Positions 4,694 through 61,322 of a stretch of 64,000 bases of DNA are shown piece by piece. The first letter of the stretch is position 1; the number at the start of each line of letters is the position of its first letter. The notes below the pieces were generated by a model. The model made no database searches, was not told the origin of the DNA, and was given only the letters and a program-made list of their open reading frames with translations. Made by a program: the position numbers and the translations under genes. This DNA is from a virus (taxonomy: Duplodnaviria > Caudoviricetes): IMG/VR virus record IMGVR_UViG_3300047157_000186; one strand, given 5' to 3'.

Positions 4694-7654
4694 ATGAGCA
4701 ATTTTAACGATTTCCTAGGAATGCAAGCCGCAAAACTAAACATGACAAGAGAAGAGTATACTGCATACTATTTGTCAGAAGCAAAACCTGGTCCAAAACC
4801 ATATCACAGAGGATTAGATGACGATGAGATTGAAGATAAAAAAGATCAGATAAAAAAACAATCAGACATGGATGACGATGATTCTAGTGCATATAAAGAA
4901 ATGCCAGGTGATAAAGAAGCTAGAGAAAAAGGTGAAGTTAAAACATCTAAGCATGTAAAGAAATATCATGAATTATATGGTGATAAAAAAGATGAGTCAG
5001 TGGATGAAGCAACATTCAGACCAAACTCAGGTACTATGAGTGGAGGTACATATACTTTAGATAATAGAAAATATAAATTAAAAAAAGATATTGAAGGTGT
5101 TCAAATTGGTAATTATACAAATATAGTGTTACCAAAGGGAACTATTATATACAACATTCCGGGCGGTGTGTTTGCAGATCACCCTTCATTAAAAAGATAC
5201 GAGAACGGAAACAACAAATATTTTAACAAACCAACATTTAAGGGAATTTCTATTATAAGAAAAGAGGAAACTATCTTTTCAATAGATAAAAATTCAAAGA
5301 TATTAGAATCAGTAGTTACTGAAGCTAAAGCATATAAGTTAAAAGCTTCTGAATTCGGTGGAGATACACACTCAGCACCGTACAACGTAAAGGGCGAACC
5401 TACATGGAGAGTTCATAGTACTTATGCTATTGATCAAGTATCTGGAGAAAATGATGCAAGTGAAAGAGACGTAGTTTTCTTTGAAGCAATGCCTATTAAT
5501 AATGACATATACATTAAGATTGGTGGAATCAATAACCTTAAAAGAACTAATGGTTCTACATACGGTAATAACTTTGGCACTACTATTGAAGAATGGAAAA
5601 AGGATCCAAAGAGAATTGCAAAAGAAGCTTCCGAGTTTCTTACTGATGCAACGCATCTTAAATGGATAAACAAAAAAGCAAGAAGTCAGGGTCAAACAAT
5701 TAAATGGGCTTTGAAGGACGATTACTCTAGTGTGATTGTAGATCTAGTTAATAAATCATTAGGTCTTACTGAATCTCAAGTTAATGAGTTTTATTTTGAG
5801 AAAGATGAAGAAGAAAGATTACAAAAATTTGTAGATCAACTTTCTTTTGGAGATGAACTAGAATACAGAGATGGTTTTTCTACAGGTCGTGGAAGCTTTC
5901 CAAATACAAGACAACTTAAAAATGAATTAGATTCTAATTTTCAATTATTACTAACTCAAAAATCAGGTAGAAATTGGGATCTTTATGTTGGTAGTGATGA
6001 TTTAGTTTTTCTTATACAGCCAGATTTAGGTGCAAAGAATTATATGCAAGTTTCAATAAGTAGTACTAAAGAACAATGGAACGATGAGTCTAGTGTTTTT
6101 GCTAGATCCAATGGATATTCAGTATATGAATCAGTAGTTAACGAAAGAGCTAAACACACATCAACTGATTTTTCTAAACCAGGTAATGATGGTGATATTT
6201 ACTTTTCAAAAAGAGAAGGTGATGCCGTCGGCGTTAGATTAGGAGATAAATTACAAATGATTTATGTTTTTCAAGAAGAACCTAAATTAGGAAGAATTCA
6301 AAAAACTGATAAACGTTGGGAAAACATGGGTCCAGCTTCTGAAGAACTTTTAATTGATTTAAGAGGTAGAGAAGAAGGTAAAATATTATTTGACTTTGTT
6401 TCAACTCTTGAAGAATCAGTAGTTAATGAAGAAAAGATTAAATATGCTAAAGGAAAAACATATCAATCTTCTGGTCATTGGACTGTACAAGTTGATAGTA
6501 ATTCAAGTATGTGTGATATTAGAGTAAATCATTCAGCTGGTTGGAGATTAGATCCACATGATGATAGAGAAGAAACTTGGGAATTATTAGATAATGGAAG
6601 ACAAAGAGCTACAATATATTTTAAATCTGGTAATATTGATAAGTTTGCTAAACAGATGTTTGATCTTAATGATAGAACAACTTGGGGTAATAAAACAAAA
6701 TTAACTGCTAAAGATTATGCAGATATTATTAGAGTTTGGATCGATATGAAAATGGCTAATGAAGGTAATTATAACTTAGAAGATATTTATGATTTAATAG
6801 CACATCACAGATTTGATAAAGATTATAAAAAACTTTCTTCTAAAGACAGAGAGTGGATAGAGAATGATGCTGAAGAAAGAGGATTCGTAGAATCTTTATC
6901 ACCCAGATTTTTTAATTCTTTATTAGTAAAGTTAAACGAAGATTTAATTACAGAAAGTAAAGTGCCTAATTTTAAATTCGGTATGAAAAAACAATATGAC
7001 GCTGATGATATTAATCAAATGTATGGTTTTTGGGGAACTCTAGATGTTCATATGGACACTTATGAAATTGAAGAAATATGGAACGATGTATGGGGAATAT
7101 TGACAAGGGGTTGGAAGTTCTCAGATGCTGGAGCGCTATATTATCTAAACGCAAAAGCTGGTAGATGGTTAGCAGATAAAGTATGGAACGATATTAATTC
7201 TCAGATTTCTCAACCAGATGCCATTGATATGATTTTATCTGATTATGCTAGACCATCTAAATGGAAGGCATGGTCAAAAGAATATAATACATTTGCTCAG
7301 GAAGAATTGGCAGAATGTGTTATTCTAGAAAAGGCTGAAGGCGATAGAGGTCCAATCAGTGATCCTAAAATTGAAAAAGCACTTAAGACAAAATCAGAAG
7401 AAACTGGTGTGCCAATTGGTATCATTAGAATTATTATGAGAAGAGGAATGGCAGCATGGAAAACTGGTCATAGACCTGGTGCAACTGAACAACAATGGGG
7501 ATATGCTCGAGTAAATGCATTTTTAACAAAAGGTAAAGGAACTTGGGGAGATGCTGATAAAGATGTCGCTAAAGAAGTTAGAGATGAAGGTCATGATGAC
7601 GGGTTAAAGGAACAGAATTACTTTGATCAATCACACAGAAAACAAAATATATAA
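4694..7654 (+). CDS. modular putative internal-head polyprotein with repeated ESVV(T/N)E-type linkers
   Basis: ATG 4694 is preferred over TTG 4619. Linkers at 4994, 5306, 5771, 6128 and 6413; C-terminal RGMAAWKTGHRPGATEQQWGYARVNAF (DUF5824-like, from recollection). Confidence 0.7.
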   Translation: MSNFNDFLGMQAAKLNMTREEYTAYYLSEAKPGPKPYHRGLDDDEIEDKKDQIKKQSDMDDDDSSAYKEMPGDKEAREKGEVKTSKHVKKYHELYGDKKDESVDEATFRPNSGTMSGGTYTLDNRKYKLKKDIEGVQIGNYTNIVLPKGTIIYNIPGGVFADHPSLKRYENGNNKYFNKPTFKGISIIRKEETIFSIDKNSKILESVVTEAKAYKLKASEFGGDTHSAPYNVKGEPTWRVHSTYAIDQVSGENDASERDVVFFEAMPINNDIYIKIGGINNLKRTNGSTYGNNFGTTIEEWKKDPKRIAKEASEFLTDATHLKWINKKARSQGQTIKWALKDDYSSVIVDLVNKSLGLTESQVNEFYFEKDEEERLQKFVDQLSFGDELEYRDGFSTGRGSFPNTRQLKNELDSNFQLLLTQKSGRNWDLYVGSDDLVFLIQPDLGAKNYMQVSISSTKEQWNDESSVFARSNGYSVYESVVNERAKHTSTDFSKPGNDGDIYFSKREGDAVGVRLGDKLQMIYVFQEEPKLGRIQKTDKRWENMGPASEELLIDLRGREEGKILFDFVSTLEESVVNEEKIKYAKGKTYQSSGHWTVQVDSNSSMCDIRVNHSAGWRLDPHDDREETWELLDNGRQRATIYFKSGNIDKFAKQMFDLNDRTTWGNKTKLTAKDYADIIRVWIDMKMANEGNYNLEDIYDLIAHHRFDKDYKKLSSKDREWIENDAEERGFVESLSPRFFNSLLVKLNEDLITESKVPNFKFGMKKQYDADDINQMYGFWGTLDVHMDTYEIEEIWNDVWGILTRGWKFSDAGALYYLNAKAGRWLADKVWNDINSQISQPDAIDMILSDYARPSKWKAWSKEYNTFAQEELAECVILEKAEGDRGPISDPKIEKALKTKSEETGVPIGIIRIIMRRGMAAWKTGHRPGATEQQWGYARVNAFLTKGKGTWGDADKDVAKEVRDEGHDDGLKEQNYFDQSHRKQNI
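4994..6430 (+). repeat. dispersed in-frame direct repeats encoding the ESVV(T/N)E linker, locus 1
   Basis: gaatcagtagttactgaagct 5306-5326, gaatcagtagttaacgaa 6128-6145, gaatcagtagttaatgaa 6413-6430; degenerate copies at 4994 and 5771. Confidence 0.85.
7646..7654 (+). promoter_or_regulatory. putative late promoter motif variant AATATATAA
   Basis: Followed by TACATG exactly as at 3516 and 53398; starts 12 nt before ATG 7658. Confidence 0.5.
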
Positions 7655-7657
7655 TAC

Positions 7658-8344
7658 ATGAAGTATATTAAATTGTTTTTAGAATCTGAAGTCAGAGATG
7701 ACGATACTTACAGCGATTATCCAGAAGCGGCAAAGAAAAATGCTCAAATGGCAATCGATTGGAAAGAAAAGTATGGTCGCGAAGAAGTGGACGCTGGAAC
7801 TGCAGTTGGTTGGGCAAGAGCACATCAATTAGCTAAAGGTGAAAACATATCTGGAGATACAGTAAAACGTATGGCTTCATTTAATAGACATAGAAAAAAT
7901 TCATCTATTAAACCTGAATTAAAAGAAACTCCATGGAAAGATAAAGGTTATGTTTCTTGGTTAATATGGGGTGGAGATGAAGGAGTTGATTGGGCAATGG
8001 AACTATCTAAAAAGATGAGTAAAGTTGAAGAAATGGTTAGTGTTTTATCTTTAGATCAATTTATTCTAGAGAAAAAGAAAAGTAAACCAAAAACAGATAA
8101 AGAAAAAATAAAAGATCTTTCTAAAAAACAAAAGAGTTTATCTAAGAAAAACAAAGATTTTATTGAGAAAATAAATAAGATGTCTAAAGATAAATCAAAA
8201 GAACCAGCTGATAAAATAGAAACGGCATTGTTAAAATCACAAATGCAACAAACTTCTGTTGATGGCATGAAAATAGCTGTTCAAAAAAACCAATTAGCTT
8301 TGAAAGCAAAGCTAAAGACGATTAAAAAAAGATCAAAGGCATAA
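7658..8344 (+). CDS. putative capsid-internal protein: conserved phage domain plus Lys-rich C-terminal module
   Basis: MKYIKLFLESE leader; GTAVGWARAHQLA..RMASF..RH..WLIWGG domain; internal SLDQFILE followed by a basic region. Confidence 0.65.
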   Translation: MKYIKLFLESEVRDDDTYSDYPEAAKKNAQMAIDWKEKYGREEVDAGTAVGWARAHQLAKGENISGDTVKRMASFNRHRKNSSIKPELKETPWKDKGYVSWLIWGGDEGVDWAMELSKKMSKVEEMVSVLSLDQFILEKKKSKPKTDKEKIKDLSKKQKSLSKKNKDFIEKINKMSKDKSKEPADKIETALLKSQMQQTSVDGMKIAVQKNQLALKAKLKTIKKRSKA

Positions 8345-8348
8345 TAAT

Positions 8349-8831
8349 ATGAAATATATTAAATTATTTGAATCATTTGTAAATGATAAAGAGATCAAGG
8401 ACTGGGAAAAAGATAACGGTAAACTACCGATTCCCAAGAAGATCATAGAGATATCTAAGGATATGGCAAAGGAAGGTTTTATTAGAAAAGATACTAAGGC
8501 GGTTCAAGCTAAATTATGGATTGGATTAGAAGGAATTTCATGGATAGAAATGAAGCAAAAGTTTGGAGATATAGTAGGTAAATTTTATGGTGGAGAATTC
8601 TATAATGCTATGACAAACCCTATGGCAGAAAAATCAGCCTATTATGCATATGAAGTTTCGAAGCATGTTAGTGATATGGTTGCTAATGAAGAATCAGTAG
8701 AACCTGCTTACTATCTAATGAAAAATTATTTTAATTCATTTGGATTAAATATTAACAGAAATAAACTTTTCGACAGAGCAGAAAGAGAACTAGATGCATG
8801 GATGAAAAACAACAAAATAGAAACGTTATAA
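8349..8831 (+). CDS. putative capsid-internal protein
   Basis: MKYIKLFESF leader, 160 aa. Confidence 0.6.
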   Translation: MKYIKLFESFVNDKEIKDWEKDNGKLPIPKKIIEISKDMAKEGFIRKDTKAVQAKLWIGLEGISWIEMKQKFGDIVGKFYGGEFYNAMTNPMAEKSAYYAYEVSKHVSDMVANEESVEPAYYLMKNYFNSFGLNINRNKLFDRAERELDAWMKNNKIETL

Positions 8832-8839
8832 TATATTAA

Positions 8840-8848
8840 GATATATAA
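8840..8848 (+). promoter_or_regulatory. putative late promoter motif GATATATAA
   Basis: Intergenic copy upstream of ATG 8868. Confidence 0.55.
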
Positions 8849-8867
8849 TAAAAATCAACAACACAAC

Positions 8868-9563
8868 ATGGACAAAAAAATATTATCATTCGAAGAGTAT
8901 GCTGCTAATAAAAATCTAGCAAATACTGACAAATTGGCTGAAGACGAAATCGAAATCAAAGTAGACGGAGAGTATGAAATCGAAGTAGAAAAAGAAGACG
9001 AAGACGAAAAAGAAGCGGAAACTGAAGAAACTGAAGAAAAAGTTGAAGAGGCTGAAGAGGTTGATGAAGATTTTGAAAAAAAATTCAATTCGGCAATGGA
9101 TTCTGTGGATGATGTTCGTACAGAAATTGAAATGACATTAGAAGACACACCTCAGTTAAAATCATTCTATACAGTAGATGCCCAATTAGATAAAGCACTA
9201 GGAAGTTATAGAAAAAAAATTAAGCGTATATTAAGTGCAGTTTCGGAATCAACTAATGAAGCAGAAGAAACTGAAGAGGTTGCAAAAGCGGTTTCAGAAA
9301 TGATGACAGAGGCATATGAATCTGCCGTCAAAGAAGCATGTGAATATGACAAAGATGACTATCCTGACCACACTGTAGAATCATACCTTAAAGAAAACGC
9401 AACATTAGCTGCAACATTAGTTGCTCAATCAGCAGAAGATGCGAACGCTGAGATACATGGAGAAGGACTTACTAAAGAAATGTACGAAGCATGTCTAAAC
9501 GGTATTAAAGAAGCTTATAATAAAAAGATTGATGAGCTTAAAGAAATGTACGAAGCAAAATAA
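8868..9563 (+). CDS. highly acidic putative prohead core/scaffold-like protein
   Basis: Very Glu-rich and helical; leader MDKKILSFEEY. Confidence 0.5.
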   Translation: MDKKILSFEEYAANKNLANTDKLAEDEIEIKVDGEYEIEVEKEDEDEKEAETEETEEKVEEAEEVDEDFEKKFNSAMDSVDDVRTEIEMTLEDTPQLKSFYTVDAQLDKALGSYRKKIKRILSAVSESTNEAEETEEVAKAVSEMMTEAYESAVKEACEYDKDDYPDHTVESYLKENATLAATLVAQSAEDANAEIHGEGLTKEMYEACLNGIKEAYNKKIDELKEMYEAK

Positions 9564-9579
9564 TCCAAGTATCATCGGA

Positions 9580-9608
9580 TTAAACTTTTTAAAGGGTTCA
9601 TGTATAAT
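9580..9608 (+). promoter_or_regulatory. putative early/middle promoter TTAAAC-N17-TATAAT
   Basis: Same 17-nt spacing as the TGAAAC-N17-TATAA(T/G) elements at 54520 and 54744. Confidence 0.5.
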
Positions 9609-9610
9609 AC

Positions 9611-10144
9611 ATGGACCCTTTTTATTTAAGAGACAATATGCCTAGAATTCCAGTAGAATTAATATACATGCAAATGGCTTACCAAATAGCCAAATTATCT
9701 TACGCTAAACGTAGACGCGTTGGATGTATTATTGTAAAAGATACTCAGATTATATCAACGGGTTACAATGGTACGCCATATGACTTTGATAATGACTGTG
9801 AAGAGGAACAAATCAGATATGTAGACAATCCTGATCATATGCAAATTCTAATAGAGAAGGGATATGAATGTGAAGGTGTTTGTTGTTCTAAAGAGGTAAC
9901 TAAACGAGAAGTATTGCATGCAGAATCAAATGCGTTGGCAAAAATCAGTAAATCTACACTTTCTTCTGAGGGTGCAGATATGTACGTGACCACATGTCCA
10001 TGCTTTGACTGCGCAAAATTAATTATTCAATCAGGTATTAAGCGAGTATTTTATTCAGAAGACTATAGAGATATGGGCGGAGTAGAATTATTAAAGAAAG
10101 CTGGTATCGAAGTAAATGAAGTTATATGTTGGAACGATCTATAG
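9611..10144 (+). CDS. cd: dCMP deaminase (true start may be ATG 9638)
   Basis: AKLSYAKRRRVGCIIVKD..IISTGYNG, HAESNA and PCFDCAK zinc motifs. Confidence 0.92.
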   Translation: MDPFYLRDNMPRIPVELIYMQMAYQIAKLSYAKRRRVGCIIVKDTQIISTGYNGTPYDFDNDCEEEQIRYVDNPDHMQILIEKGYECEGVCCSKEVTKREVLHAESNALAKISKSTLSSEGADMYVTTCPCFDCAKLIIQSGIKRVFYSEDYRDMGGVELLKKAGIEVNEVICWNDL

Positions 10145-11856
10145 ATCAAATTATTCAAAAAACATTAGACGAAAATGTATTTGGAGAATCTTTTACATTT
10201 AGAAAAGGACAAAGAGAAATTGTTACTAAGATATGTGAAACATATTTAGAGGATCCAAAATCAACATTAGTCATTGATGCACCCACTGGTGCTGGTAAAT
10301 CACTTATAGCTATGTGGTCAGCACATGTATTAAAAGAACTTGGTAATAGAGGCTATATGGTAACTAGTGACCTGAGTCTCCAGGATCAATATGAGTCTGA
10401 CTTTTATAAATATGGATTACGATGGCCATCAATTAAGGGAGTTGATAATTATGAATGTTCTGTTAATGGTCTGCCATTTTCCCTCGGAGATTGTAAACTA
10501 AAAGGAATGGGATATGAACAAGCAGAATCTTTATCATGTTATGGATCATGTGAATATCTTCAAAATAGACGAAGAGCGATAGATCAACCTATCTCTTTAT
10601 TAAATTATTCTTTTTGGTTAATTCAAAGAAATTATGTTGAGGCCAAAATGGAACAAGAAGAAAGAACAGTGCCATTTGAACAACGTGATTTTGTTTTCTT
10701 TGACGAAGCACATAGAGTTGACGATATAGTTCAAAGTCATTTTAGCCCTAGAATAGATCAAACTATTGTAGACAAAATGGTAACTTTAAATAGATTTGCA
10801 AGTAAGCAAGGATTTCAAGAAGCCACATATACAAAAAATAAAATACAACATCTTGTAAATGAAATGATGTCAGGTGACAAACATGATGTGTTTTCGGCTA
10901 TGAGTGAATTTGAAAGAATATTGCACGGTTTTGGTAAAGTCAGAAAGATTGCTAATAAATTAGCTAAAAGAAGATACGGAAATACTGGAGTACCAAAAGA
11001 TTGGCAAACTTCATTTGGACATTTTGATAGACTTAAGGACGTTCATTGTAAAGTTGAAGATTATTTAAGTTTGATCAAAGAAGTTGGAATTGATAAAATG
11101 GTTTTAGATCAAAACGAACATGAAGCAAAATTCATGTGTGTAGAAGAAAGTTTAATGATTAATAAATATCTACATGAGAAGGCTGACTTTAAAGTTTTTA
11201 TGAGTGCAACTATTGGAGATCCTAAGGCATTTGTTAAGATAATGGGAATTAAGAACGCTAAGTTTATCAGAATGGACAATGTGTTTAATTATGATAAATC
11301 TCCTATTGTATTTGTTAATAGACATAAGCTTTCGTTTAGAGAAAGAGAAAAAAGTTTACCTAAAGTTGTAGAAATCTTAGATCAGATTATATCTAAACAT
11401 AAAGGTCAGCGTGGTGTTATACATACTGGATCTTATGCATTTACTAATTTTATAAAACAAAATTCTAAACATACATTTAGACTTATGGATTATGAAAACT
11501 CCAAAGAGAAATCGGTAATGTTAGATTTGTTTAAAAAGAAAGAAGGTGCTGTATTGATGGGACCTTCGTTATTAGAAGGTTTAGATTTAAAGGATGATAT
11601 AAGTAGATTTCAAATATTCTTTAAAGTTCCATACCCATCATTAGGTGATCCTTTAATTAAAGCTAAAATGCAAACGTCAAATGAGTGGTACGATTGGAAA
11701 ACTGGAATTAGCATTATGCAAGGTGTTGGAAGATCTGTAAGAAATGAAAATGATTGGGCAGTGACTTATGTTTTAGATGCATGCTTCAGAAGTTTGATAT
11801 ATAAACCAGGATTCTTCCCTCCAAGTTTCACAGAGAGGGTTAAGACTATAAAATAA
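10126..11856 (+). CDS. DinG/Rad3-like SF2 helicase
   Basis: Walker A DAPTGAGKS, DEAH, MSAT, EGLD, KVPYP and QGVGRSVR motifs. Confidence 0.88.
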   Translation: MLERSIDQIIQKTLDENVFGESFTFRKGQREIVTKICETYLEDPKSTLVIDAPTGAGKSLIAMWSAHVLKELGNRGYMVTSDLSLQDQYESDFYKYGLRWPSIKGVDNYECSVNGLPFSLGDCKLKGMGYEQAESLSCYGSCEYLQNRRRAIDQPISLLNYSFWLIQRNYVEAKMEQEERTVPFEQRDFVFFDEAHRVDDIVQSHFSPRIDQTIVDKMVTLNRFASKQGFQEATYTKNKIQHLVNEMMSGDKHDVFSAMSEFERILHGFGKVRKIANKLAKRRYGNTGVPKDWQTSFGHFDRLKDVHCKVEDYLSLIKEVGIDKMVLDQNEHEAKFMCVEESLMINKYLHEKADFKVFMSATIGDPKAFVKIMGIKNAKFIRMDNVFNYDKSPIVFVNRHKLSFREREKSLPKVVEILDQIISKHKGQRGVIHTGSYAFTNFIKQNSKHTFRLMDYENSKEKSVMLDLFKKKEGAVLMGPSLLEGLDLKDDISRFQIFFKVPYPSLGDPLIKAKMQTSNEWYDWKTGISIMQGVGRSVRNENDWAVTYVLDACFRSLIYKPGFFPPSFTERVKTIK

Positions 11857-11867
11857 AATCTATTATT

Positions 11868-12788
11868 ATGAAAAAACTACTTGCAATTATCTCGTTAATT
11901 ATGTTATCATCATGCGGAGCCAGTTGGCAATTGTCTACGCTTAACCATGATCCAATATATGAAGACGAAAATTATATAGTGGTTTCAGATGATGTTAAGA
12001 TAGACACATTAAGTGAATTTCAGTTTAGAAATAAATTAAGAACAGATATAGGTTTTAGATTGGACTTTGCACGATATGCTTTGAGTCAACCGAGATCGTT
12101 TGATTGGAATAATAGATTACTAGGAAGGCGATATGATTCTAGATGGAATAACTATTATTGGAGTTGGAATAGAGATCAGATGTGGAATGATTGGGCTTGG
12201 GGTTATACAGGCTGGAATTCTTGGGGCTCTCCTCATAGATGGTCACCATTTGGATATGATAGATGGGGCTATGGAGTCTACTATGGTTGGAATAATCACG
12301 GTTGGGGATATAACAACTGGATGGGCAATGTTCATTATGGAAATGGTTACTATAATAACTGGGGCTGGAACAATGGGTTCTATAGTAGATATAGAGGTAC
12401 TAACGTGCCATACTATAGAAATAGATCAAATACGGTACGTGTTAATGGTCGAAGAGGTTCAATTAGTAATGAAGTAGTTAATAATAGAAGAGTTAGAACT
12501 AATACCAGAGTCAATACTAACACTAATACTAGGACTAATACAAAACCTAGAGTATATCTAAATCAAAACACACCAGTTAATAACAATACAAAACCTAGGG
12601 TTATTAGAGAGAAGCCGAGAGTACCAGTTATTAGAAACAATAATACAAGACCTAGGAATAATACAAGGCCAGTAATTAGAAACAATAACACAAGACCTAC
12701 ATATAACAATAACACAAGACCCACGAATAATTCTAGACCAACTACGACAACTAGAAAAAGTGGATCTAATACTAGAAGAGGTAACTAA
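11868..12788 (+). CDS. predicted lipoprotein with W/G/Y/N-rich and NNNTRP-repeat low-complexity regions
   Basis: Signal peptide II MKKLLAIISLIMLSS-C; aromatic/Gly/Asn-rich middle; basic repeat tail. Confidence 0.7.
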   Translation: MKKLLAIISLIMLSSCGASWQLSTLNHDPIYEDENYIVVSDDVKIDTLSEFQFRNKLRTDIGFRLDFARYALSQPRSFDWNNRLLGRRYDSRWNNYYWSWNRDQMWNDWAWGYTGWNSWGSPHRWSPFGYDRWGYGVYYGWNNHGWGYNNWMGNVHYGNGYYNNWGWNNGFYSRYRGTNVPYYRNRSNTVRVNGRRGSISNEVVNNRRVRTNTRVNTNTNTRTNTKPRVYLNQNTPVNNNTKPRVIREKPRVPVIRNNNTRPRNNTRPVIRNNNTRPTYNNNTRPTNNSRPTTTTRKSGSNTRRGN

Positions 12789-18138: not shown

Positions 18139-20046
18139 ATGGAATTATCTAACAATATATTAGCAGTTGTAGAACCAGCGATTAGGCCAACTGAGATCAA
18201 GATGGATGCACTTGCTGAAGAAAAGAAAGACGAGGCAGAGTACAAGCAATCTACTATGGTTGCAACTCTTAAACCATTTATACTTATTAATGGTTATCAA
18301 TTTGCACCGACTGACGTTATACGTTTTGAGTTAAATTTAATGGGTGATTTACCAGAATGTGAAATTGAATTGAGCGACGAAGCTGGAAAATTTGCAGTTG
18401 GTAGTTATCCAAGAGATGGTGATTTCTTCACAATACTTATAAATTCTAAAAATCAAGAAACATTTAAATCTATTCATATGGATTTTGATATTATAAGCTG
18501 TGAATCCCCAAAAGATGGAAATGTTGGAACTGCTGTATTTGAAATATTTGGAGTTTGTAAAATTCCTAGAATGCAGGCCGAAGATTGTAGAAATTTTGAA
18601 AGTGCAGATTCTTTAACTCATATGGAAGAAGTAGCCCGAGACTTAGAATTGGGTTTAGCAACTAATATTGATGCGGCTGACGATGCACAGTCTAGAATTA
18701 TGGCGTTTGAACCATATCTTAGTTTTATAAAAAAGATAATCAAAGAAAGTTATATAGGTGAAGAATCTTTTCAAAAGTTTTGGATCGATCCATACTACTA
18801 TATGAATTACGTAGATGTAAATGCATTGTTTAATTCACCTAATCCACCGATAGAAGAATTTGCTGAATCATTGGCTTCAGCTGCTGAATCAATGGTGGCT
18901 ACAACTGATGCTGAAAAAAATGCTAAAACAGGAAACGACATTGAGGTACCATTACTATTGACAAATCATGTTGCTTTTATGGGAAATAGTTCATTTATAG
19001 AGAAATCTAATATATTAAATAATTCTGCAAATGTTAGTGCAAAAAACGGATATGCCAGAGAAGTAACTATTTATAATAACAACGGTGATGCTGGTGAGAG
19101 AAAACAAGAATTTAGAATAGAGTCTTTAGGTGGAAATGATTTAAAAGAATTAGAAGAGCCACTAAAGGGTAATAGAAATGATAAAAGACATATTGATCAA
19201 ATCAAATATAAGTATATTGGAAGACAAGAGGCCGGTGATGATGGATTGGGTAACGTACACCCCAATGCTGCATTTTCACAATTGCACAATGCACAAAATG
19301 AGGCTGAAACACAAAAAATGAAATTAGAAGTTACTTTAAATTCATTTAATCCATCTTTATATAAATATCAAAAGATTCCTGTTTTAATGTATATTACTAA
19401 CCCTAAAGCCATACAACAAAACGAAAGAATTAAAGGTGATAAAAAAGAATTAGGCATGGATAAAGATGAGCCTTTTGGATTGGAAGAAGCTAGTGAAGAT
19501 TTAGCAGATGTTGGTAAAAATAGTCCAAGTCAATCTTTAGATTCATTTTTGTCAGGTTATTATATAATTGAAAGTATTATATATGAAGTAGAAGAAGATG
19601 TCACAAAACAAACAATGATACTTCTTAGAAGAGAATGGCCAACAAGAACAGAAAATCTAATTAATCCACCTGGACTTGAAGATGCTACTGATGAAGAAAA
19701 AGCAGATAATGTGGCTGAAAATAGCCCGGAACCAGCACCTGAACCAACTCCAGAACCAACACCAGAACCAACCCCAGAACCAACACCAGAGCCTACACCA
19801 GAGCCTACACCAGAGCCTACACCGGAACCTACACCAGAGTCAACGCCACATGTATATGAAATATTAATAACTGGTAATATGTTGAGAATAGTTGTATTTG
19901 ATGCAAGTGGTGCTGAAGTATATAGAGGTGACCCTAGAATTAGAACAAATACAATATTAGATGAGGGCGGAGTTGTAAATGAAGCTAAAGCATTTTTAGA
20001 TCCATCGAAACAAGACCCTAACGTCCAAAATATGCAAAAAAAATAA
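18139..20046 (+). CDS. putative baseplate hub protein (gp27-like) with PEPT linker
   Basis: Lies between the LysM-like and gp5-like genes; SGYYIIESI motif near the end of the hub domain. Confidence 0.45.
   Translation: MELSNNILAVVEPAIRPTEIKMDALAEEKKDEAEYKQSTMVATLKPFILINGYQFAPTDVIRFELNLMGDLPECEIELSDEAGKFAVGSYPRDGDFFTILINSKNQETFKSIHMDFDIISCESPKDGNVGTAVFEIFGVCKIPRMQAEDCRNFESADSLTHMEEVARDLELGLATNIDAADDAQSRIMAFEPYLSFIKKIIKESYIGEESFQKFWIDPYYYMNYVDVNALFNSPNPPIEEFAESLASAAESMVATTDAEKNAKTGNDIEVPLLLTNHVAFMGNSSFIEKSNILNNSANVSAKNGYAREVTIYNNNGDAGERKQEFRIESLGGNDLKELEEPLKGNRNDKRHIDQIKYKYIGRQEAGDDGLGNVHPNAAFSQLHNAQNEAETQKMKLEVTLNSFNPSLYKYQKIPVLMYITNPKAIQQNERIKGDKKELGMDKDEPFGLEEASEDLADVGKNSPSQSLDSFLSGYYIIESIIYEVEEDVTKQTMILLRREWPTRTENLINPPGLEDATDEEKADNVAENSPEPAPEPTPEPTPEPTPEPTPEPTPEPTPEPTPEPTPESTPHVYEILITGNMLRIVVFDASGAEVYRGDPRIRTNTILDEGGVVNEAKAFLDPSKQDPNVQNMQKK
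19726..19848 (+). repeat. 12-bp coding tandem repeat (PEPT)n
   Basis: About 10 units of cc(a/g)ga(a/g)cc(a/t)ac(a/t/c). Confidence 0.9.
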
Positions 20047-53397: not shown

Positions 53398-53406
53398 GAT
53401 ATATAA
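53398..53406 (+). promoter_or_regulatory. putative late promoter motif GATATATAA
   Basis: The G lies 12 nt before ATG 53410. Confidence 0.6.
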
Positions 53407-53409
53407 TAC

Positions 53410-53778
53410 ATGAAAACATTTAATACATATTTAATTGAAAACGCTGTTAACGAACAGGATTTGGAACTTATTAATGAAGGTCTTCAAGAAACTTGGACTC
53501 CGGAGTTAGAAGAGAAAATAGATGCAGCATTAGAATCTTTTGCTTCAGAATATCAAAATGAAGATGGTTCTTATGATATTGAGAGACTTAATGAAGAGAT
53601 GACTAATGAAGGTTTCTTTGGATCAATTATTGGTGGACTTACCGGTTTTGCTTTAGGGAAATCTATTGGTAAAATGCTAGCAAAAGTTCTTGGTATTCAA
53701 AAAGGTGTGTTTTACGATTTATTAACTTCTAGACTTGTAGGTGCCGCATTAGGTGCAGCTCTAGGTAAAAAACTGTAA
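53410..53778 (+). CDS. putative capsid-internal protein with glycine-zipper C-terminus
   Basis: MKTFNTYLIE leader; acidic propeptide with VNE/INE/LNE/TNE sites; GSIIGGLTGFALGKSIG..GAALGAALG. Confidence 0.6.
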   Translation: MKTFNTYLIENAVNEQDLELINEGLQETWTPELEEKIDAALESFASEYQNEDGSYDIERLNEEMTNEGFFGSIIGGLTGFALGKSIGKMLAKVLGIQKGVFYDLLTSRLVGAALGAALGKKL

Positions 53779-54429
53779 ATGAATTACTTAGCAGTAGATT
53801 TTTCTTTAAATTCTCCAGGTTTAGCCATATATAATGATAAAAAAAAGAGTTATCATTTTATTAGTTACATAAAACCAAAAACAGGAACTAAAGCAGAACA
53901 AAGACTTCAAGAAGAGATTTCTTTATTAGAAGATGTTACTTTAGTTAATCAACCTGATTTTACAAACAATGAATCTTTCTCAAGTGCCGAACTCTTAAAG
54001 GTAAAGAGATATGATAAAATGGCTGATGATTTAATCAACCTAATATTACAAAATTCTTTTGAAGGTGATGGTTTCACTATAGCATTTGAAGGTACTTCTT
54101 ATGGTTCTAAGATGGGAACTAATAATATGATTGACATGGCAGCAGGAGCCGCAATCTTAAAGCTTAAACTTTTAAAGACCTTAAATCCAGAAGATTTACT
54201 TACTGTTGCTCCTACCACAATTAAGAAGTTTGCAGGTAAAGGTAATATGAATAAACTACAATTATTTGAAGCTTACCAAAAAAATGTGAACGAAGACCAA
54301 ATCTTGGCTAAAAGCCCTTTGTGGAAAATAGTTAAAGACCTAGAAATTGGGAAGAAGATCCCGAAGCCTTTGGATGACTTAGTTGACGCTTATTTTCTCG
54401 CAGCATACGTTTCAAACCTCCAAGCCTAA
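53779..54429 (+). CDS. ruvC: RuvC-like Holliday junction resolvase
   Basis: LAVDFSLNSPG, IAFEGTSYGS, PTTIKKFAGKGN..K and DDLVDAY catalytic pattern. Confidence 0.8.
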   Translation: MNYLAVDFSLNSPGLAIYNDKKKSYHFISYIKPKTGTKAEQRLQEEISLLEDVTLVNQPDFTNNESFSSAELLKVKRYDKMADDLINLILQNSFEGDGFTIAFEGTSYGSKMGTNNMIDMAAGAAILKLKLLKTLNPEDLLTVAPTTIKKFAGKGNMNKLQLFEAYQKNVNEDQILAKSPLWKIVKDLEIGKKIPKPLDDLVDAYFLAAYVSNLQA

Positions 54430-54455
54430 TCTAACTTCTGGCTTAACTAACATTT

Positions 54456-54485
54456 GTTATATGCACTTGCCGAAAAACTGTTTCA
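54456..54485 (-). promoter_or_regulatory. putative leftward promoter TGAAAC-N18-TATAAC
   Basis: Reverse complement of gttata(54456)..gtttca(54485); points antisense into the RuvC gene. Confidence 0.45.
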
Positions 54486-54519
54486 TTTTATTTTAAAAAA
54501 AATTAAAATTAATCCCAGG

Positions 54520-54548
54520 TGAAACAAATTAAAGGTTAGATATATAAT
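54520..54548 (+). promoter_or_regulatory. putative promoter TGAAAC-N17-TATAAT overlapping GATATATAA
   Basis: Exact elements at 54520-54525 and 54543-54548, with an upstream A/T tract. Confidence 0.65.
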
Positions 54549-54575
54549 AAGTATAATAACAAAAGTATTAATTAC

Positions 54576-54746
54576 ATGTTAGTTACAACAGATTACCTTC
54601 GTTTATTAAGCATCCTACAAAAAATGGTGATAGCGAACCAGCTTACTGAAAAGCAAGCGTCAGAGTTACTTCACAAATCAGGACTGATTAAGTTAAAGGA
54701 GAATAAATGGAAGGAACCTTCTGGAGCAATCTTAACAATTAATTGA
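54576..54746 (+). CDS. small hypothetical protein (56 aa, below the ORF-track cutoff)
   Basis: MLVTTDYLRLLSILQKMVIANQLTEKQASELLHKSGLIKLKENKWKEPSGAILTIN; directly downstream of a promoter. Confidence 0.55.
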   Translation: MLVTTDYLRLLSILQKMVIANQLTEKQASELLHKSGLIKLKENKWKEPSGAILTIN

Positions 54747-54772
54747 AACTATTTATTATTATACAATATAAG
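54744..54772 (+). promoter_or_regulatory. putative promoter TGAAAC-N17-TATAAG for the ssb gene
   Basis: Same spacing as 54520; the TGA is also the stop of the small ORF. Confidence 0.6.
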
Positions 54773-54835
54773 GAAACGAAAGAACATTAAAGTAATTTCA
54801 AGGTATTAACAAAACAAACTAAACAATTTAAAGGT

Positions 54836-55758
54836 ATGAGTGATTCATTTGACATTTTTAACTTGGGCGTGGAAGACGTAGAAACGCACCAAGTGAAAGC
54901 AAGTAGTTCTACTAACGAAGATCTACAAACCAACAGCAGACGATGGTAAAGACGGAACTTACAAAGCATTAATACGTTTTGTGCCAAATCCAGAAAACCC
55001 TCGTAATTCCCTAATCCAAAAATATGTACACTGGTTAACAAACTCTAGTGGCGATGGTAAATTAGTTGATTCTCCAGCAACAATCGGAGAAAAATGCCCT
55101 ATCGCAGATGTATTCTGGAAGTTGCGTAAATCAGATTCAGCTGTAGATAGAAAATCTTCAGATAAACTAAAAAGACGCCAACAGTACTATTCTTTAGTAA
55201 AGATCGTAAAAGATCCACAAAATCCAGAACTAGAAGGTACTTACAAAGTATTTAAATTTGGATATAAAATTAAAGAAAAGATAGACGCAGAATTAAAACC
55301 AAACTTTGGTGAGCCAACACAAGTATTCGACCTATTCGAAGGTAAGAACTTTGAGTTAGTTATCACTAGACAAGGTGAATATAATAACTACGATAATCTA
55401 AATTTTCTTCTAGTAAGTCAGCTATTATTATGGGCGATGCTCCAGCAGAAAGTAGTAAAGAAACTATGACTACTATCAAAGAAGAGTTAGAAGCAGCTCC
55501 TTCATTAAAAGGATATGATTATCAAAGCATGGGACGAAGATACAAGATCATTTGTAAATGATGTATTAAGAATGTATCTTAATCCGGGTGATTCTATTGC
55601 ATCGAGTGACATCAAGTGCTCCAAAGGCAGCAACTAAAACTGCAACAGCAGTAAAAGAAAAACCAGCGGCAGCACCAGTGACTTCAACGTCGGAATCAAC
55701 TTCAAGTGTATCAACAGATGATGATCTAGATTCTTTCTTGAATGACCTCGACATCTAA
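54836..55758 (+). CDS. T4 gp32-like single-stranded DNA-binding protein with about 4 apparent single-base indels
   Basis: IYKPTADDGKDGTYKALIRFVP, CPI, YKVFKFGYKIKEKI, FDLFEGKNF and acidic tail DDDLDSFLNDLDI are recovered by shifting frame near 54918, 55396, 55526 and 55605. Confidence 0.8.
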
Positions 55759-56824
55759 TAACAATATAGAACTTACTGAAGAGCTTAAAGGATAAAATAA
55801 GATATGCACTTAACAAGTAGTATCTCAAATACATTCTACTCCTAATAAGAAGCTACTAAAGGACATGCATGGGCGAATAACCTGTGCATGTCCTTATTGT
55901 GGTGATTCTCACTGAAGACGATACCAAGAAAAGAGGTAATATATTTTGGGATACACTACAGTATCATTGTTATAATTGTAGTTATCATACTAATCTATAT
56001 TCTTTTTTAAAAGATCATGATGTTAAGATGCCTAACATCTAATGACTCTTTTATGGTTATCGACTATATCAAACAAAATAAAATACAGGTAAACCCAGAG
56101 TCTGTATTGAAACACCAGGCGCTAGAAAAGATACATAATCTAGCAATTGATGTTGAAGAATTCAAGAAACATTTTAAAGCTAAAGTAATAGAACCAGGTG
56201 ATTGGATTTGGTTTCAATTAAAGATAGGTTATTACATAAAAAATCTGAAGAATTTCTATATTCAGATAAAGAGTTTCGTTTTGGATTCTTAAATATAGTA
56301 CAGATGGTAAAATTATAGGTGCACAACCAGTAGAATGAAAGGGTATGGGACAGAGATATTTAACTTATGATTTGCCAAAATTATATGAAGAAATGGGTAA
56401 GCCATTAGAAATGAGCAATGAGGAACTAAACACACTTGCAAAGATATCAACACTTTTTGGAATTATGCAATTAAATTTCCAAAGACCAGTAACAATGTTC
56501 GAAGGTCCTTTAGATGCTAAAGTTTATGCATAACTCGTTGGCCTTAGCAACTGCAGGTAGATCAACTGATGAATTTGATGAGATACCAACTGTAGGTATA
56601 TGTTTGATAATGACGCAACGGGTAAAAAGAAAATGGCAGAAAAGTTAAAGAAAGGCAGACCCGTTTTTATGTGGTCTAAATTTCTTAGCGAAAATAAACT
56701 AGATACATATAATATTAAGGATCTAAATGATTTAATATTGAAGTGTTTTGAGCTTAAAATCGATGCTCACAAAAAGATCGATAATTATTTCACTTCTAAT
56801 CAATTAGATTTATGGTATGTATAG
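55742..56824 (+). CDS. T4 gp61-like DNA primase with many apparent single-base indels
   Basis: Zn finger CPYCGDS..KKRGN..YHCYNC; TOPRIM FEGPLDAK, MFDND and KDLND spread over several frames. Confidence 0.78.
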
Positions 56825-57033
56825 AAACGATTAACAACATGGTTGAGGATAACTTTGATGAGTTCCAAAAAGACAGTGATAGATTTAAGGGTATGAAACT
56901 TTTGATAGATTTCAAGCCATTAGATCTTAGCGTCAATTCTCCAGAAATGGAAATGCCAAAACCTAAATTTAAGAAGAGGCAAATAACATCAAAATTTATT
57001 AAACCAAATCCTAACAAGAAATCATTATTTTAA
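56812..57033 (+). CDS. hypothetical protein
   Basis: 73-aa ORF between primase and the uvsY-like gene; lies in the noisy region. Confidence 0.5.
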   Translation: MVCIETINNMVEDNFDEFQKDSDRFKGMKLLIDFKPLDLSVNSPEMEMPKPKFKKRQITSKFIKPNPNKKSLF

Positions 57034-57034
57034 T

Positions 57035-57457
57035 ATGACTAAAGAAAACATACTAGCATTAGACGGAAAAGTTAAGTAGACAAAGAACTGAGTGGACAAA
57101 CAATATAAAAAAGTTGGCACAGAGTTTGAGAAACTTAAATTTAATGGAAGAAACAATTGCTGAAGTTTTATCTTCGCGTCAATCTCTAGTAGAACAAATG
57201 CATATTTAAATATGAAAGTAAAAGAACAAAAAGCAAAAGTAGCTATTAGATATAGAGAAGCCTATATTAGATACTATGAATATGATTATAAACTCGGTGA
57301 AAAACAAAAAGAAAGATTTATAGAGACAGACTTAGCAGACGAAAACATGATATTGTCTCATCTAGAAAATCAAGTTGAGTTTTTTAAAGATTCGGTAAAA
57401 ACCCTAGATAATATGGGATTTGCCATTCGTAATAGACTAGCATTAAAAGATCTATAA
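57035..57457 (+). CDS. uvsY: UvsY-like recombination mediator with about 2 apparent indels
   Basis: Helical protein ending VKTLDNMGFAIRNRL, directly upstream of uvsW; N-terminal half (MTKENILALDGK..) is in other frames. Confidence 0.6.
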
Positions 57458-57482
57458 CGAAAAATAAAAATGCTCTAACAAT

Positions 57483-58991
57483 GTGGAGCTTAGTTTAACT
57501 GAAAATAAACAGTTGCTACGTATTGATGAAGCAACTGAATTAGAACTGGAACAACTCAATATTTCTTTAAATAGAAGAATTGATTCATGGCGATTTAATC
57601 CTTTGGTTAAAAAGGGTTTATGGGATGGATATGTTTCATATATAAAAGATGATAAATGGATTCCTTCAGGATTATGGAGAGAAGTCATGCAGATATGTAA
57701 AGAATATAAATTTGAGTTTAAACTCAATGGTATTACTGACATGTTTGATACCAATATTAATCAAGAAAAATTTACAAAATGGGCTTTAGACTTTTTCGAA
57801 AAGTCAGAGATAACTCCAAGAGATTATCAAATAGAGGCAGCATTTAATATACTAAAATTTAGAAGATGCTTAAGTGAGCTTGCAACTTCTGCGGGTAAAA
57901 CACTGATATCATTCTTAACAGTATCATATTTACTAGAACAACAAAAAGCAAAAAAGATTTTATTTATTGTACCCAATGTATCATTAGTTGTACAAGCGAG
58001 TGAAGATTTTCTAGACTATAATTATAGAAATGCAATAGATATTAAGGTACAGCAAATATACAGTGGTCAAAAATTAAGGCCAGGTAGGAATGTTATTATT
58101 GGAACATATCAATCACTTGTTAAAAAAGATAAAGCATATTTTGCAGAATTTGATGCAGTAATTGTTGATGAAACACACAAAGCAAAATCAGCCTCTATTA
58201 AAACTATTTTACAAAAGTGTATTAATGCAGATTATAAATATGGTTTATCTGGAACTATTCCAAAAGAAGGCACATTAGATAGATTAACACTAATGGCATA
58301 TACTGGTCCATTAATTACAGAAATAAGTGCACATTATTTACAAAACGAAGGGCATATAGCAGGTTGTAAAGTAAAGGTAATTAAAATGGACTATGCACCT
58401 CAATCTACAAAAGACGCATTTAGAGAAATGTCCCAGAATAGATATGAAAGTAAAGACGTTTTTAAATTTGAGCAAAACTATGTGATCAATTCACCTGGAA
58501 GACTTAATTTTATAACAAGTATTATCTCCAGGGTTAAGGGTAATAGTTTAGTTCTTTTTCATAGAATTGAACATGGTAAAAAAATATATGAAAAACTCAG
58601 ACAAGAGAGTGATAAATCTGTTTATTATGTTGATGGTGGAATTGATAAAGATATTAGGGAAGAACACAAAAAGAAAATGGAAGCTGGAAACCAAGTCGTC
58701 ATTGTCGCTTCATATGGTACATTCTCAACTGGTATATCCATCAAGAAAATCCACAACATATTCTTCACAGAATCATTTAAATCGGAAGTAATTATTAGAC
58801 AATCTATCGGTAGAGGTTTAAGGCAACATAGCTCTAAAGACTCGGTCAATATTATAGATTTTGTAGATGATTTAAGTTCTCCTGATTGGGACAACTATCT
58901 AATAAGACACTCCAAAGAAAGACAAAGGATCTACAAGGAACAGAAGTTTAAGTATGATATAAAAAATGTAGATTTTGAAGGAGATATATAA
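57483..58991 (+). CDS. uvsW: UvsW-like DNA helicase
   Basis: PRDYQ, LATSAGKTLI, IVPNVSLV, VDETH, GLSGT, STGISIK and QSIGRGLR motifs. Confidence 0.92.
   Translation: MELSLTENKQLLRIDEATELELEQLNISLNRRIDSWRFNPLVKKGLWDGYVSYIKDDKWIPSGLWREVMQICKEYKFEFKLNGITDMFDTNINQEKFTKWALDFFEKSEITPRDYQIEAAFNILKFRRCLSELATSAGKTLISFLTVSYLLEQQKAKKILFIVPNVSLVVQASEDFLDYNYRNAIDIKVQQIYSGQKLRPGRNVIIGTYQSLVKKDKAYFAEFDAVIVDETHKAKSASIKTILQKCINADYKYGLSGTIPKEGTLDRLTLMAYTGPLITEISAHYLQNEGHIAGCKVKVIKMDYAPQSTKDAFREMSQNRYESKDVFKFEQNYVINSPGRLNFITSIISRVKGNSLVLFHRIEHGKKIYEKLRQESDKSVYYVDGGIDKDIREEHKKKMEAGNQVVIVASYGTFSTGISIKKIHNIFFTESFKSEVIIRQSIGRGLRQHSSKDSVNIIDFVDDLSSPDWDNYLIRHSKERQRIYKEQKFKYDIKNVDFEGDI
58983..58991 (+). promoter_or_regulatory. 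putative late promoter motif GATATATAA
   Basis: Overlaps the uvsW stop; upstream of ATG 59025. Confidence 0.55.
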
Positions 58992-59024
58992 TAAAATAAT
59001 AACATACAAAAAAATAACAACACT

Positions 59025-61322
59025 ATGTATAAATTAAAATCTTTTGATCAGTTTTCTACTGAATCACAAATCAATAGATCTAGACAAGTAGAAGAAGAAA
59101 ACTCTACTAAAAGAAGTACTGAAGCAGAAACATATAAAAATTTACTTGGTGAATTTAAAGTTACTTCTATCAAAGAATTAACTGAAGAGCAAAGAATCGA
59201 ATTTTTTACTAAGTTAAGAGGCGCTGAGATTAACGAAGCAACTGTTTTAATTGAAGAAGGAACTAGAGGACAAATTGGTAAAATCGATAAAAAAGGAAAT
59301 ATCACTTCTGTATATATGCATTATGATTCATATCCTGAAAACATATTACCTATTATAACTTCAACTTTTAAAGATGGTAAAAATGTAGATTTTATTCTTA
59401 AGAATGGAGACAGTTCGGGTTTAGATAAAGATGTTAAGAAGATTAATTTCTACGGGAACTTTACAGCGTCTAAGGGTAAAATTGCTAATATATCTAAATA
59501 TCTAAGGGATGTTGCTGATGGCGGCGGCGCTGAATTCGTATACTTATGGGATGAAGCCAACAAAGAATGGTTAATGGCAGACATTTACGGTAAAGGATAT
59601 GATGATGTTTACCCAGCGTTTGAATCTTTAACTACTTCAGTAAATGAAGCTATTTCAGTTCAATATAAAAGAGACGCAAAAAAAGTTTTAACAGTTTATA
59701 AAAATTTATTTACTAAGAAACTAACAGATTTTGGTGCAATGGACAAAGTAGGTACATTAGGTTGTATTAAGTATCTTTTTGAAGAAGCGATGACAGATGC
59801 TAATTTCCACAGAGAGAAAGTTATATCTAAGAATATTAAAGGTAGAATAGGTTCATTTGAATTAAAAGTAGCAGGTTTAGGTAATCACTTTTTAACAATA
59901 GGTGCTACTACTACAAAAAGAATTTTAGATAAACATTATAGTGACCTTGCAAATGCAGCTGGTTGGTCAGGAATCGGAATTGTTGAAGGTACTGCTCTTT
60001 ATTTAGAGAGTATTAAAGAAGAAGCTTCAGGTCAAGCTTTATTAAATGCGTTTAACATGTTTGAGTCATTTGCGTATGACGAAGGAGATGCTATCAATGA
60101 GAAATCATATGATAAAAAGTCTTTAATGAAAGCTATGAAAGCAGATGATGGCATGATTCAATTAGGAAATGGACAAGAGTATGTTATTTATGCATATGGT
60201 AATGGCAACGATAACAATGATGATATGTGGGGAGATAAAACAATCTTTGGATTAGATCAAGACGGAGAAGAACATGAGATTAAATATTCTGACATTGTAA
60301 GTTATAATGAAGCTACTGTAGTAATGGATGCAATGGATCCTAAATCAAAGATACTTAAAAAACTTTTAAAGAAACATAACGTTAAAATGAAAGTTTTAGA
60401 TCCTAGTGGACCAAGTGGTTGGCCAGAGGTTGAAATGACAGGTTCAAGAGAAGATCTGCAAGCAGTTTTAGCATCTGAAGATGGTTGGGACGACGCTGGT
60501 CTAGAAGAATATATTGAAGAATCAGTAGTTACTGAATCACACCCAAAATGTTCAAATAAAAAAGGACATGCATACAAAGAAATTGACAAAGACGGAACTG
60601 TAGAATGTGAATATTGTGGTTTAAGAAATTCATTAAGCGAATCAGGGGTTACTGAAGCTAAATTTGTTAAAGAGTTTGACGAGGCTGTTTTAAAAGCAAC
60701 TACACAAGAAGAGGTTCTTGAAATTTATCCAAACGCAGAATTCTTTATTGGCAAATCAGATCATTTCTTTGGAGAGTTTGATGAAAATTTATTCTTTAAA
60801 GCATATTATACCAAAGGACAAAAAGAATTTGAAATCAAGTCAATTTATTCTGAAAAAAACAGTAACTATGTTCACTTATATAATGAATCAGTAGTTACTG
60901 AAGCTAAAGGCTTTAAAAACACAACAGATTTCGAAAAATTCTTAATAGAAATTGATGGAATGGGAGAAGCTCAAATTAAAAAGATAATGGGTAAAGATTA
61001 TATCGATACTCCTGGTTATTATCAAGATGAAAAAGATGATTATGATGATGTGGAAGATTTTATGAGATCTAATATGGGCACTTCAGAATTTGAAAAACTT
61101 GAATCATGGTGGGAAAGCAACGTTGCAGAATCAGTAGTTACTGAAGCTGAAGTTAATTCAGATGAAGAATTTGAAGAATATGCGGTAACTGTTTTACAAA
61201 AAGCATTTGGAGAAGATTTTGACGAAGCTAAATCTAAAAAAGTTATAGACGGTATTTTATCTAAAGCAGATGGAGATTATGGTACTGCAGTTGGTATGCT
61301 AACTAGCTCGTTAGGACAATAA
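59025..61322 (+). CDS. second modular putative internal-head polyprotein with ESVVTE linkers
   Basis: Leader MYKLKSFDQFSTE; linkers at 60519, 60639, 60885 and 61128; modules include a VYMHYDSYP domain and a C/H zinc finger. Confidence 0.7.
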   Translation: MYKLKSFDQFSTESQINRSRQVEEENSTKRSTEAETYKNLLGEFKVTSIKELTEEQRIEFFTKLRGAEINEATVLIEEGTRGQIGKIDKKGNITSVYMHYDSYPENILPIITSTFKDGKNVDFILKNGDSSGLDKDVKKINFYGNFTASKGKIANISKYLRDVADGGGAEFVYLWDEANKEWLMADIYGKGYDDVYPAFESLTTSVNEAISVQYKRDAKKVLTVYKNLFTKKLTDFGAMDKVGTLGCIKYLFEEAMTDANFHREKVISKNIKGRIGSFELKVAGLGNHFLTIGATTTKRILDKHYSDLANAAGWSGIGIVEGTALYLESIKEEASGQALLNAFNMFESFAYDEGDAINEKSYDKKSLMKAMKADDGMIQLGNGQEYVIYAYGNGNDNNDDMWGDKTIFGLDQDGEEHEIKYSDIVSYNEATVVMDAMDPKSKILKKLLKKHNVKMKVLDPSGPSGWPEVEMTGSREDLQAVLASEDGWDDAGLEEYIEESVVTESHPKCSNKKGHAYKEIDKDGTVECEYCGLRNSLSESGVTEAKFVKEFDEAVLKATTQEEVLEIYPNAEFFIGKSDHFFGEFDENLFFKAYYTKGQKEFEIKSIYSEKNSNYVHLYNESVVTEAKGFKNTTDFEKFLIEIDGMGEAQIKKIMGKDYIDTPGYYQDEKDDYDDVEDFMRSNMGTSEFEKLESWWESNVAESVVTEAEVNSDEEFEEYAVTVLQKAFGEDFDEAKSKKVIDGILSKADGDYGTAVGMLTSSLGQ
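60519..61148 (+). repeat. dispersed in-frame direct repeats encoding the ESVVTE(A) linker, locus 2
   Basis: gaatcagtagttactgaa at 60519; gaatcaggggttactgaagct at 60639; gaatcagtagttactgaagct at 60885 and 61128 (identical to 5306). Confidence 0.9.

Follow-up and report, generated by a model that had tools for sequence, protein, structure and literature searches.

How can a phage protein that is assembled from many unrelated parts gain, lose and exchange these parts and still keep its reading frame? This question is raised by two genes that lie far apart in a 64,000-nucleotide stretch of Caudoviricetes DNA (IMG/VR record IMGVR_UViG_3300047157_000186; hereafter, the window), which is AT-rich phage DNA with a GC content of about 31%, given as a single strand. 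Both genes encode chains of small modules (about 40–270 amino acids) that are mutually unrelated and are joined by one standard linker. Polyprotein gene 1 (4694..7654, + strand) codes for 986 amino acids when read from the ATG at 4694, with the open reading frame (ORF) listing extending to a TTG at 4619, and contains at least five modules, including DUF5824 at the C-terminal end. Polyprotein gene 2 (59025..61322, + strand) codes for 765 amino acids with the architecture A-B-C-D-E. The silent sites of the linker are conserved, and the loss, duplication, replacement and reordering of modules are all jointed at it. The explanation that we consider probable is that a large marine T4-like phage makes both products as polyproteins for its head cargo, and that their linker combines a predicted protease site in the protein with a crossover patch in the DNA.

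The first-pass annotation of the window, made from the sequence alone, had reported a 21-mer identical at 5306, 60885 and 61128, a shorter codon string kept at 6128, 6413 and 60519, and an arrangement of all copies as direct, in-frame repeats between unrelated modules, and each of these statements proved accurate. The 21-mer, GAATCAGTAGTTACTGAAGCT, is exact on the + strand at 5306..5326 (encoding ESVVTEA), 60885..60905 and 61128..61148, with zero occurrences expected (100 shuffles), and has near copies at 60519 (two mismatches), 60639 (two) and 6413 (three). Its first 12 bases, GAATCAGTAGTT, are found unchanged at 5306, 6128, 6413, 60519, 60885 and 61128; with at most one mismatch allowed, the 12-mer has eight matches in the window versus 0.47 expected. 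All linker copies lie on the + strand and in frame within genes 1 and 2, and encode ESVVTE(A/S), ESVVNE or ESGVTEA. Among the gene 1 linkers, those at 6128..6145 and 6413..6430 (+ strand) both read ESVVNE, with Asn encoded by AAC in the former and by AAT in the latter. Among the gene 2 linkers, the copy at 60519..60536 (+ strand) encodes ESVVTE followed by Ser, and the copy at 60639..60659 (+ strand), GAATCAGGGGTTACTGAAGCT, is a mutated form that encodes ESGVTEA. Positions 60645–60647 of the latter are GGG (Gly) in the window and GAG (Glu, giving ESEVTEA) in four sister contigs; this copy is decaying, as GGG and GAG are both off the GTA consensus. An eighth linker, beyond those listed in the earlier annotation, is the degenerate GAATCTCAAGTTAATGAG (ESQVNE) at 5771..5788 on the + strand.

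Such identity might reflect nothing more than the codon bias of an AT-rich genome, and GAA, GTT and ACT are indeed the commonest codons for their residues. TCA, GTA and GCT are not, however: in the window, TCA accounts for 26% of Ser codons, GTA for 39% and GTT for 48% of Val codons, ACT for 46% of Thr codons and GCT for 39% of Ala codons. With this usage, three independent identical codings of ESVVTEA have a probability of 1.6e-5, and six identical codings of ESVV a probability of 1.4e-7. We further collected linkers by protein-guided scans of IMG/VR with peptide words taken from outside the linker, which gave 38 loci with a gene 2 orthologue and 13 with relatives of gene 1; these loci and the window provided 128 linkers from 55 unique polyproteins. 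In this set, Ser is encoded by TCA in 86% of linkers (background 36%) and never by AGY, the Val at position 3 by GTA in 90% and never by GTT (background 56%), the Val at position 4 by GTT in 97% (the same background), and Thr by ACT in 96% (background 53%). The codon choice is thus specific to the position within the linker. When the residue at position 3 is substituted (Leu TTA, Ala GCA or Ile ATA), the third-base A is retained; these variants therefore descend, each by one step, from a single DNA sequence.

The gene for a UvsW-type recombination helicase (57483..58991, + strand), which lies directly upstream of gene 2 and is kept in all relatives, was used as a synonymous-site baseline in the same 19 loci as gene 2, where its product shows 72–99.8% amino acid identity. 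Averaged over its 65 conserved Ser, Val, Thr and Ala columns, the most frequent codon accounts for a share of 0.595, and in no column does it reach 0.9. Because the silent positions of the linker are near-fixed while these conserved columns share only 0.595, the linker DNA is conserved to a degree far above the effect of peptide conservation. Its 18–21 coding bases stay almost the same, silent sites included, both at paralogous positions and between lineages with silent-site saturation in their ordinary genes. The leader peptide MKYIKLF, which is common to the genes starting at 4228, 7658 and 8349, is written with different codons in each of them, unlike the linker. Genome-wide codon bias, which the first-pass annotation had itself put forward as the competing explanation, was rejected as the cause of linker identity on window usage, on the 128-linker survey and on the helicase baseline, and in our judgement retains practically no probability.

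Silent sites might instead be held by a role in RNA or translation, such as a hairpin or a pause between modules, with recombination being incidental. The Thr-type linker does fold into a 5-bp stem with a 4-nucleotide loop (-4.0 kcal/mol), in which the four conserved wobble bases pair mutually, base 6 with base 15 and base 9 with base 12. The Asn- and Leu-type linkers, which make up about 40% of the set, lose this stem (0 to -0.7 kcal/mol) with no compensating changes but still have TCA, GTA and GTT, and we regard the RNA explanation as improbable. The Thr-type linker also contains a 6+6 near-palindrome, TCAGTA-GT-TACTGA, that could be taken for a nuclease or recombinase site driving the cassette exchange. 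Two of the six arm pairs show a complementarity of only 52–71% across the 128 linkers, however, and no recombinase or homing nuclease was seen beside the arrays, which leaves such a site with a very slight probability in our estimate. With the stem lost in so many linkers and the arms incompletely complementary, the hairpin and palindrome readings were set aside.

The behaviour of the linker as a joint can be followed directly between close relatives. A 65-kb sister contig (G001, equivalent to loci L004 and L039) aligns collinearly with the window at an identity of about 95–98% and differs from it by five structural changes, two of which fall in the module arrays and three in simple repeats (acidic EETEE, PEPT and Asn-rich). 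In gene 2, a unit of exactly 243 bp, consisting of module D and one copy of the 21-mer (60906..61148, + strand), is missing in the sister contigs L003, L004, L076, L099 and L101. Module D is flanked by the 21-mers at 60885 (left) and 61128 (right) as direct repeats; the junction of the deletion lies within this 21-bp repeat, and the flanks are identical on both sides. This loss is the classical product of direct-repeat recombination or slippage. In gene 1, the sister contig (as G001/L039) carries two unrelated modules in place of two modules of the window and their internal linker at 6128 (5789..6412, + strand). Identity ends at the degenerate ESQVNE linker, which forms the left edge of this cassette, and returns at the linker at 6413, its right edge. 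The swapped modules recur with 93–98% amino acid identity in other contigs, where they have different neighbours and are once more bordered by linkers. Finally, in locus L007 one module and its linker are tandemly duplicated, the two copies being 94.7% identical in nucleotide sequence.

The three differences from the sister contig that lie in simple repeats concern other parts of the window. The ORF at 8868–9563 encodes an acidic protein, of which an in-frame stretch of 183 bp (9068–9251) is missing in G001, with the break in EETEE-coding repeats; the lost segment ends with SESTNEA, which is linker-like. In the ORF at 18139–20046, a Pro-Glu-Pro-Thr repeat tract (19790–19844) stands against about 330 nucleotides of other sequence in G001, and an Asn-rich repeat region at 12373–12624 also differs between the two contigs.

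Across the relatives, modules are combined in many ways. The gene adjacent to UvsW occurs in different contigs with the orders A-B-C-D-E, A-B-C-E, A-F-F-B-E, A-F-B-E, A-E, A-D-E, A-C-F-E, A-D-C-E-L and A-B-D-C-N-E. Of the internal ends of blastp high-scoring segment pairs, 20.5% fall within five amino acids of a strict linker, versus 3.9% for random positions. The exact 21-mer is present in 50 IMG/VR stretches (loci L002 and L060–L108) in 58 copies, all 58 of which are in the ESVVTEA frame within open frames of 88–1337 amino acids. The joints formed by these copies show 34 different pairings between 30 upstream and 23 downstream module families, and a single downstream family (KFVKDF...) is found after six different upstream families. 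Among 185,579 prokaryote species, no representative genome gave an exact match to the 21-mer. Long related records carry one to nine copies of the 12-mer, always on one strand and grouped in few places, and its reversed control gave none. The longest array found in this analysis is an open frame of more than 1315 amino acids with ten linkers (L046:6608–10555). At the level of contigs, the layout of the region 59000–61400 in four marine runs showed no joints and the full-length form only, a view in which rare variants are not detectable. The presence/absence variation of modules with breakpoints at the repeat, which had been anticipated in the first-pass annotation, is thereby borne out by the deletion, the replacement, the duplication and the reordering, all of them jointed at the linker. 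Conserved motif DNA flanks variable segments, and identity breaks at the motif, which is the pattern that defines motif-mediated shuffling.

Such a pattern could also be left by a selection filter alone, if illegitimate recombination broke and joined the DNA anywhere, only in-frame joints at domain boundaries survived, and linker identity were a by-product of copying together with the modules. The single-step variants of one master sequence (GTA to TTA, GCA or ATA) fit such descent by copying, and the replacement in gene 1 leaves the position of the crossover inside the linker unpinned. On the other hand, the 243-bp deletion has its joint within the 21-bp direct repeat between identical flanks. 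The linker silent sites are fixed across lineages in which the silent sites of the helicase are near-saturated, and a selection filter would need continual copying or constraint to explain this. Moreover, linkers within one protein differ by 1.83 nucleotides per 18, versus 2.27 between proteins (a value reached in 7 of 5000 permutations), and this slightly greater within-protein likeness is a signature of copying or conversion among linkers. We consider it unlikely, though deserving of some weight, that selection acted as a filter alone; linker DNA identity probably has a causal role in the crossovers, although it may instead only mark the places of the joints that survived.

At the protein level, the linker can be read as a tandem pair of hydrophobic-x-Glu sites, the first located before Ser and the second, V-(T/N)-E, before Ala. 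The residue two positions before the first linker Glu is hydrophobic in 76% of linkers versus 31% in the background, and V-(T/N)-E is invariant in form, in agreement with the hydrophobic-x-Glu context of a cut site. For comparison, T4 Alt has its cut sites at ITE-6 and LTE-619 (PMC5694885), the cleavage logo of T4 gp21 includes LIE-9 (PMC9026906), and gp245 of phage SPN3US cleaves after A-x-E with a preference for Val at P4 and Ser at P1' (PMC10052503). The linker fits the rule of the T4 gp21 head protease and resembles the preference of SPN3US gp245, making it a plausible predicted cleavage site. A gene with a Peptidase_S77 domain, the type of T4 gp21, is present in four of the five long linker-carrying relatives. 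The Peptidase_S77 matches (L052–L055; relatives G003–G006) lie in open frames of 570–831 amino acids, far longer than T4 gp21, and the protease of these relatives may itself be part of a longer fusion protein. Neither polyprotein showed a peptidase domain in Pfam and PHROG scans. For residues 430–765 of the gene 2 product, a single-sequence AlphaFold model is poor (mean predicted local distance difference test score, pLDDT, of 52.6); the sole linker with confidently modelled flanks appears there as a low-confidence gap between helices, and this modelled gap lends the protease reading weak support.

A candidate address for head cargo is found at the N-termini. The capsid targeting sequence of T4 has 10 residues (PMC9026906), and we looked for a leader some 10 residues long that has targeting residues around positions 4 and 7 as well as a hydrophobic-x-Glu site for processing. 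Judged by eye, the N-terminus of the gene 2 product, MYKLKSFDQFSTE, resembles the T4 capsid targeting sequence, and the start of the gene 1 product, MSNFNDFLGMQ, fits it less well. A family of leaders (MKYIKLFE.., MKHIRTYESFIGE, MKIFTNFNEFITE and MKTFNTYLIE), likewise reminiscent of the T4 sequence, is associated with gene starts at 3528, 4228, 7658, 8349, 8868, 53410, 59025 and 61343. Most leader-bearing genes are preceded by a GATATATAATA box, which lies at 58986..58996 (+ strand), 39 nucleotides upstream of gene 2, and also at 3519, 7649, 8843 and 53401; by its sequence and placement, it may be a late-promoter-like box of this phage group. In the form (G/A)ATATATAATA, the box occurs at 3519, 7649, 8843, 39091, 47151, 53401, 54542 and 58986, at a distance of 9–45 nucleotides before several gene starts, chiefly those of the genes with a leader.

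The explanation that we prefer can be stated as a sequence of steps for a linker with the consensus hydrophobic-x-Glu / Ser-Val-Val-(Thr or Asn)-Glu / Ala. A leader resembling the capsid targeting sequence would address the chain to the prohead, a prohead protease of the T4 gp21 type would cut it at the two tandem sites of each linker, and the freed modules would travel with the DNA. Cleavage, capsid packaging and injection of the modules are what the sequence features would predict. In the DNA, the repeat would serve as a short homology patch for the T4-type recombination and replication machinery, or for slippage. A crossover within the repeat would keep the frame and regenerate a cleavable joint, and recombinants would be viable because any crossover in the linker preserves both. 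Frequent exchange would in turn homogenise the linkers by concerted evolution and sustain their identity. The dual function that the first-pass annotation proposed for the linker, a recombination site in DNA and a protease site in protein, is thus supported for the DNA and plausible for the protein.

Several points weigh against this explanation. For homologous recombination to be efficient, a stretch of about 20 bp is short. Peptidase_S77 was not found in the 64-kb window or in the 65-kb sister contig. The linker counts include related sequences and are not independent events, although the UvsW baseline has the same relatedness. The crossover behind the gene 1 replacement may also sit in longer flanking homology, if the donor shared the flanks, in which case the break at the linker would mark an older joint.

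If the explanation is true, large phages diversify their injected proteins not one gene at a time but by swapping small modules at a joint that works in DNA and protein alike. The linker would then provide a sequence handle for cataloguing hundreds of candidate host-takeover and anti-defence modules in metagenomes, as well as a natural design rule for engineered multi-cargo phage capsids. It would also be a clear case of synonymous-site conservation tied to recombination and not to translation. A wider proposal, which we advance tentatively and rate at somewhat below even chances, is that the linker is a joint shared across marine giant T4-like phages, its 18–21 bases acting at once as crossover patch, frame keeper and protease site in the manner of an integron, but in the reading frame and without a dedicated recombinase. 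In that case, any phage of the group could plug in the capsid-delivered effector modules of others, and it would be the exchange that kept the joint unchanged.

The genomic surroundings give some indication of the host phage. Besides the helicase, the genes of the window include those for a baseplate wedge protein and a dCMP deaminase-like protein. The baseplate wedge was the only gene that placed the phage among named phages; the named phages closest to it by this gene are huge uncultured phages (LR756500, 40% identity), Lak phages and Tenacibaculum jumbo phages. Searches of genes 1 and 2 against the GenBank phage collection with blastn and tblastn gave no match, and an Atlas look-up of a widely shared module (gene 1 residues 237–392) gave no usable match. 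The family PHROG 3041 ('cytidyltransferase', 678 positions) is split between two places of the window: its N-terminal part matches the nucleotidyltransferase end of the ORF at 62617–63999 (motif GRFQPFTLGH), and the C-terminal part (DUF5824) makes up the final module of gene 1 (7244–7654).

A full-text literature search returned no published description of such polyproteins in large T4-like phages, and the closest known systems each share some of their features. The T4 internal proteins IPI, IPII and IPIII, as well as Alt, carry a capsid targeting sequence and are processed by gp21, and the cargo of the internal proteins is thought to counter host defences (PMC9026906, PMC5694885, PMC3012670). 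The polyproteins resemble them in a short N-terminal leader with hydrophobic residues that looks similar by eye, in a predicted hydrophobic-x-Glu cut context and in putative cargo that is diverse and evolves fast. However, each T4 cargo protein has one gene and one leader, whereas here unrelated modules follow one another in a single frame, separated by a repeated double-site linker that is conserved as DNA. Polyvalent proteins of phages and conjugative elements, which contain known enzyme domains and an embedded peptidase (MPTase domain), are, as would be the case for the polyproteins, multi-domain chains of the invasion stage that are proposed to be processed into units (PMC5512222; Iyer et al. 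2017). In contrast to these, no peptidase was found in the chains described here, and a DNA-conserved standard linker has not been described for polyvalent proteins.

With respect to exchange, the adhesins gp37/gp38 of T-even phages recombine at conserved motifs (Tetart et al. 1998, as cited in PMC3157838). According to this secondary account, they too have short in-frame conserved motifs between variable segments, with exchange in or near the motifs, but there the motifs make up the structural core of a single folded domain, and the variable segments are homologous to each other. In the polyproteins, by comparison with that account, the motif is a predicted cleavable spacer between unrelated, independently movable modules that vary in number and order. 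The VENN motif of CdiA and the PxxxxDPxGL motif of Rhs proteins sharply delimit variable domains, nucleotide identity drops at the motif as it does here, and cassette exchange has been proposed to proceed via the motif-encoding sequences (PMC3150448). These bacterial systems have one variable C-terminal domain, an immunity gene and silent orphan cassettes; the phage genes, as far as their organization indicates, encode many modules in each protein, all of them expressed in frame, and lack immunity genes. The PeSL promoter-terminator cassettes are short conserved repeats of T4-type genomes that mediate gain, loss and replacement of accessory genes among close relatives (PMC2839356, PMC4122927), as the linker appears to do for modules. 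PeSL elements are intergenic and regulatory, consisting of a promoter and a stem-loop terminator, and shuffle whole genes, whereas all linker copies lie inside ORFs in one frame and the repeat is a coding one that shuffles parts of proteins. An expressed multi-module chain, a repeated double-site linker and conservation of this linker as DNA are united in none of the compared systems.

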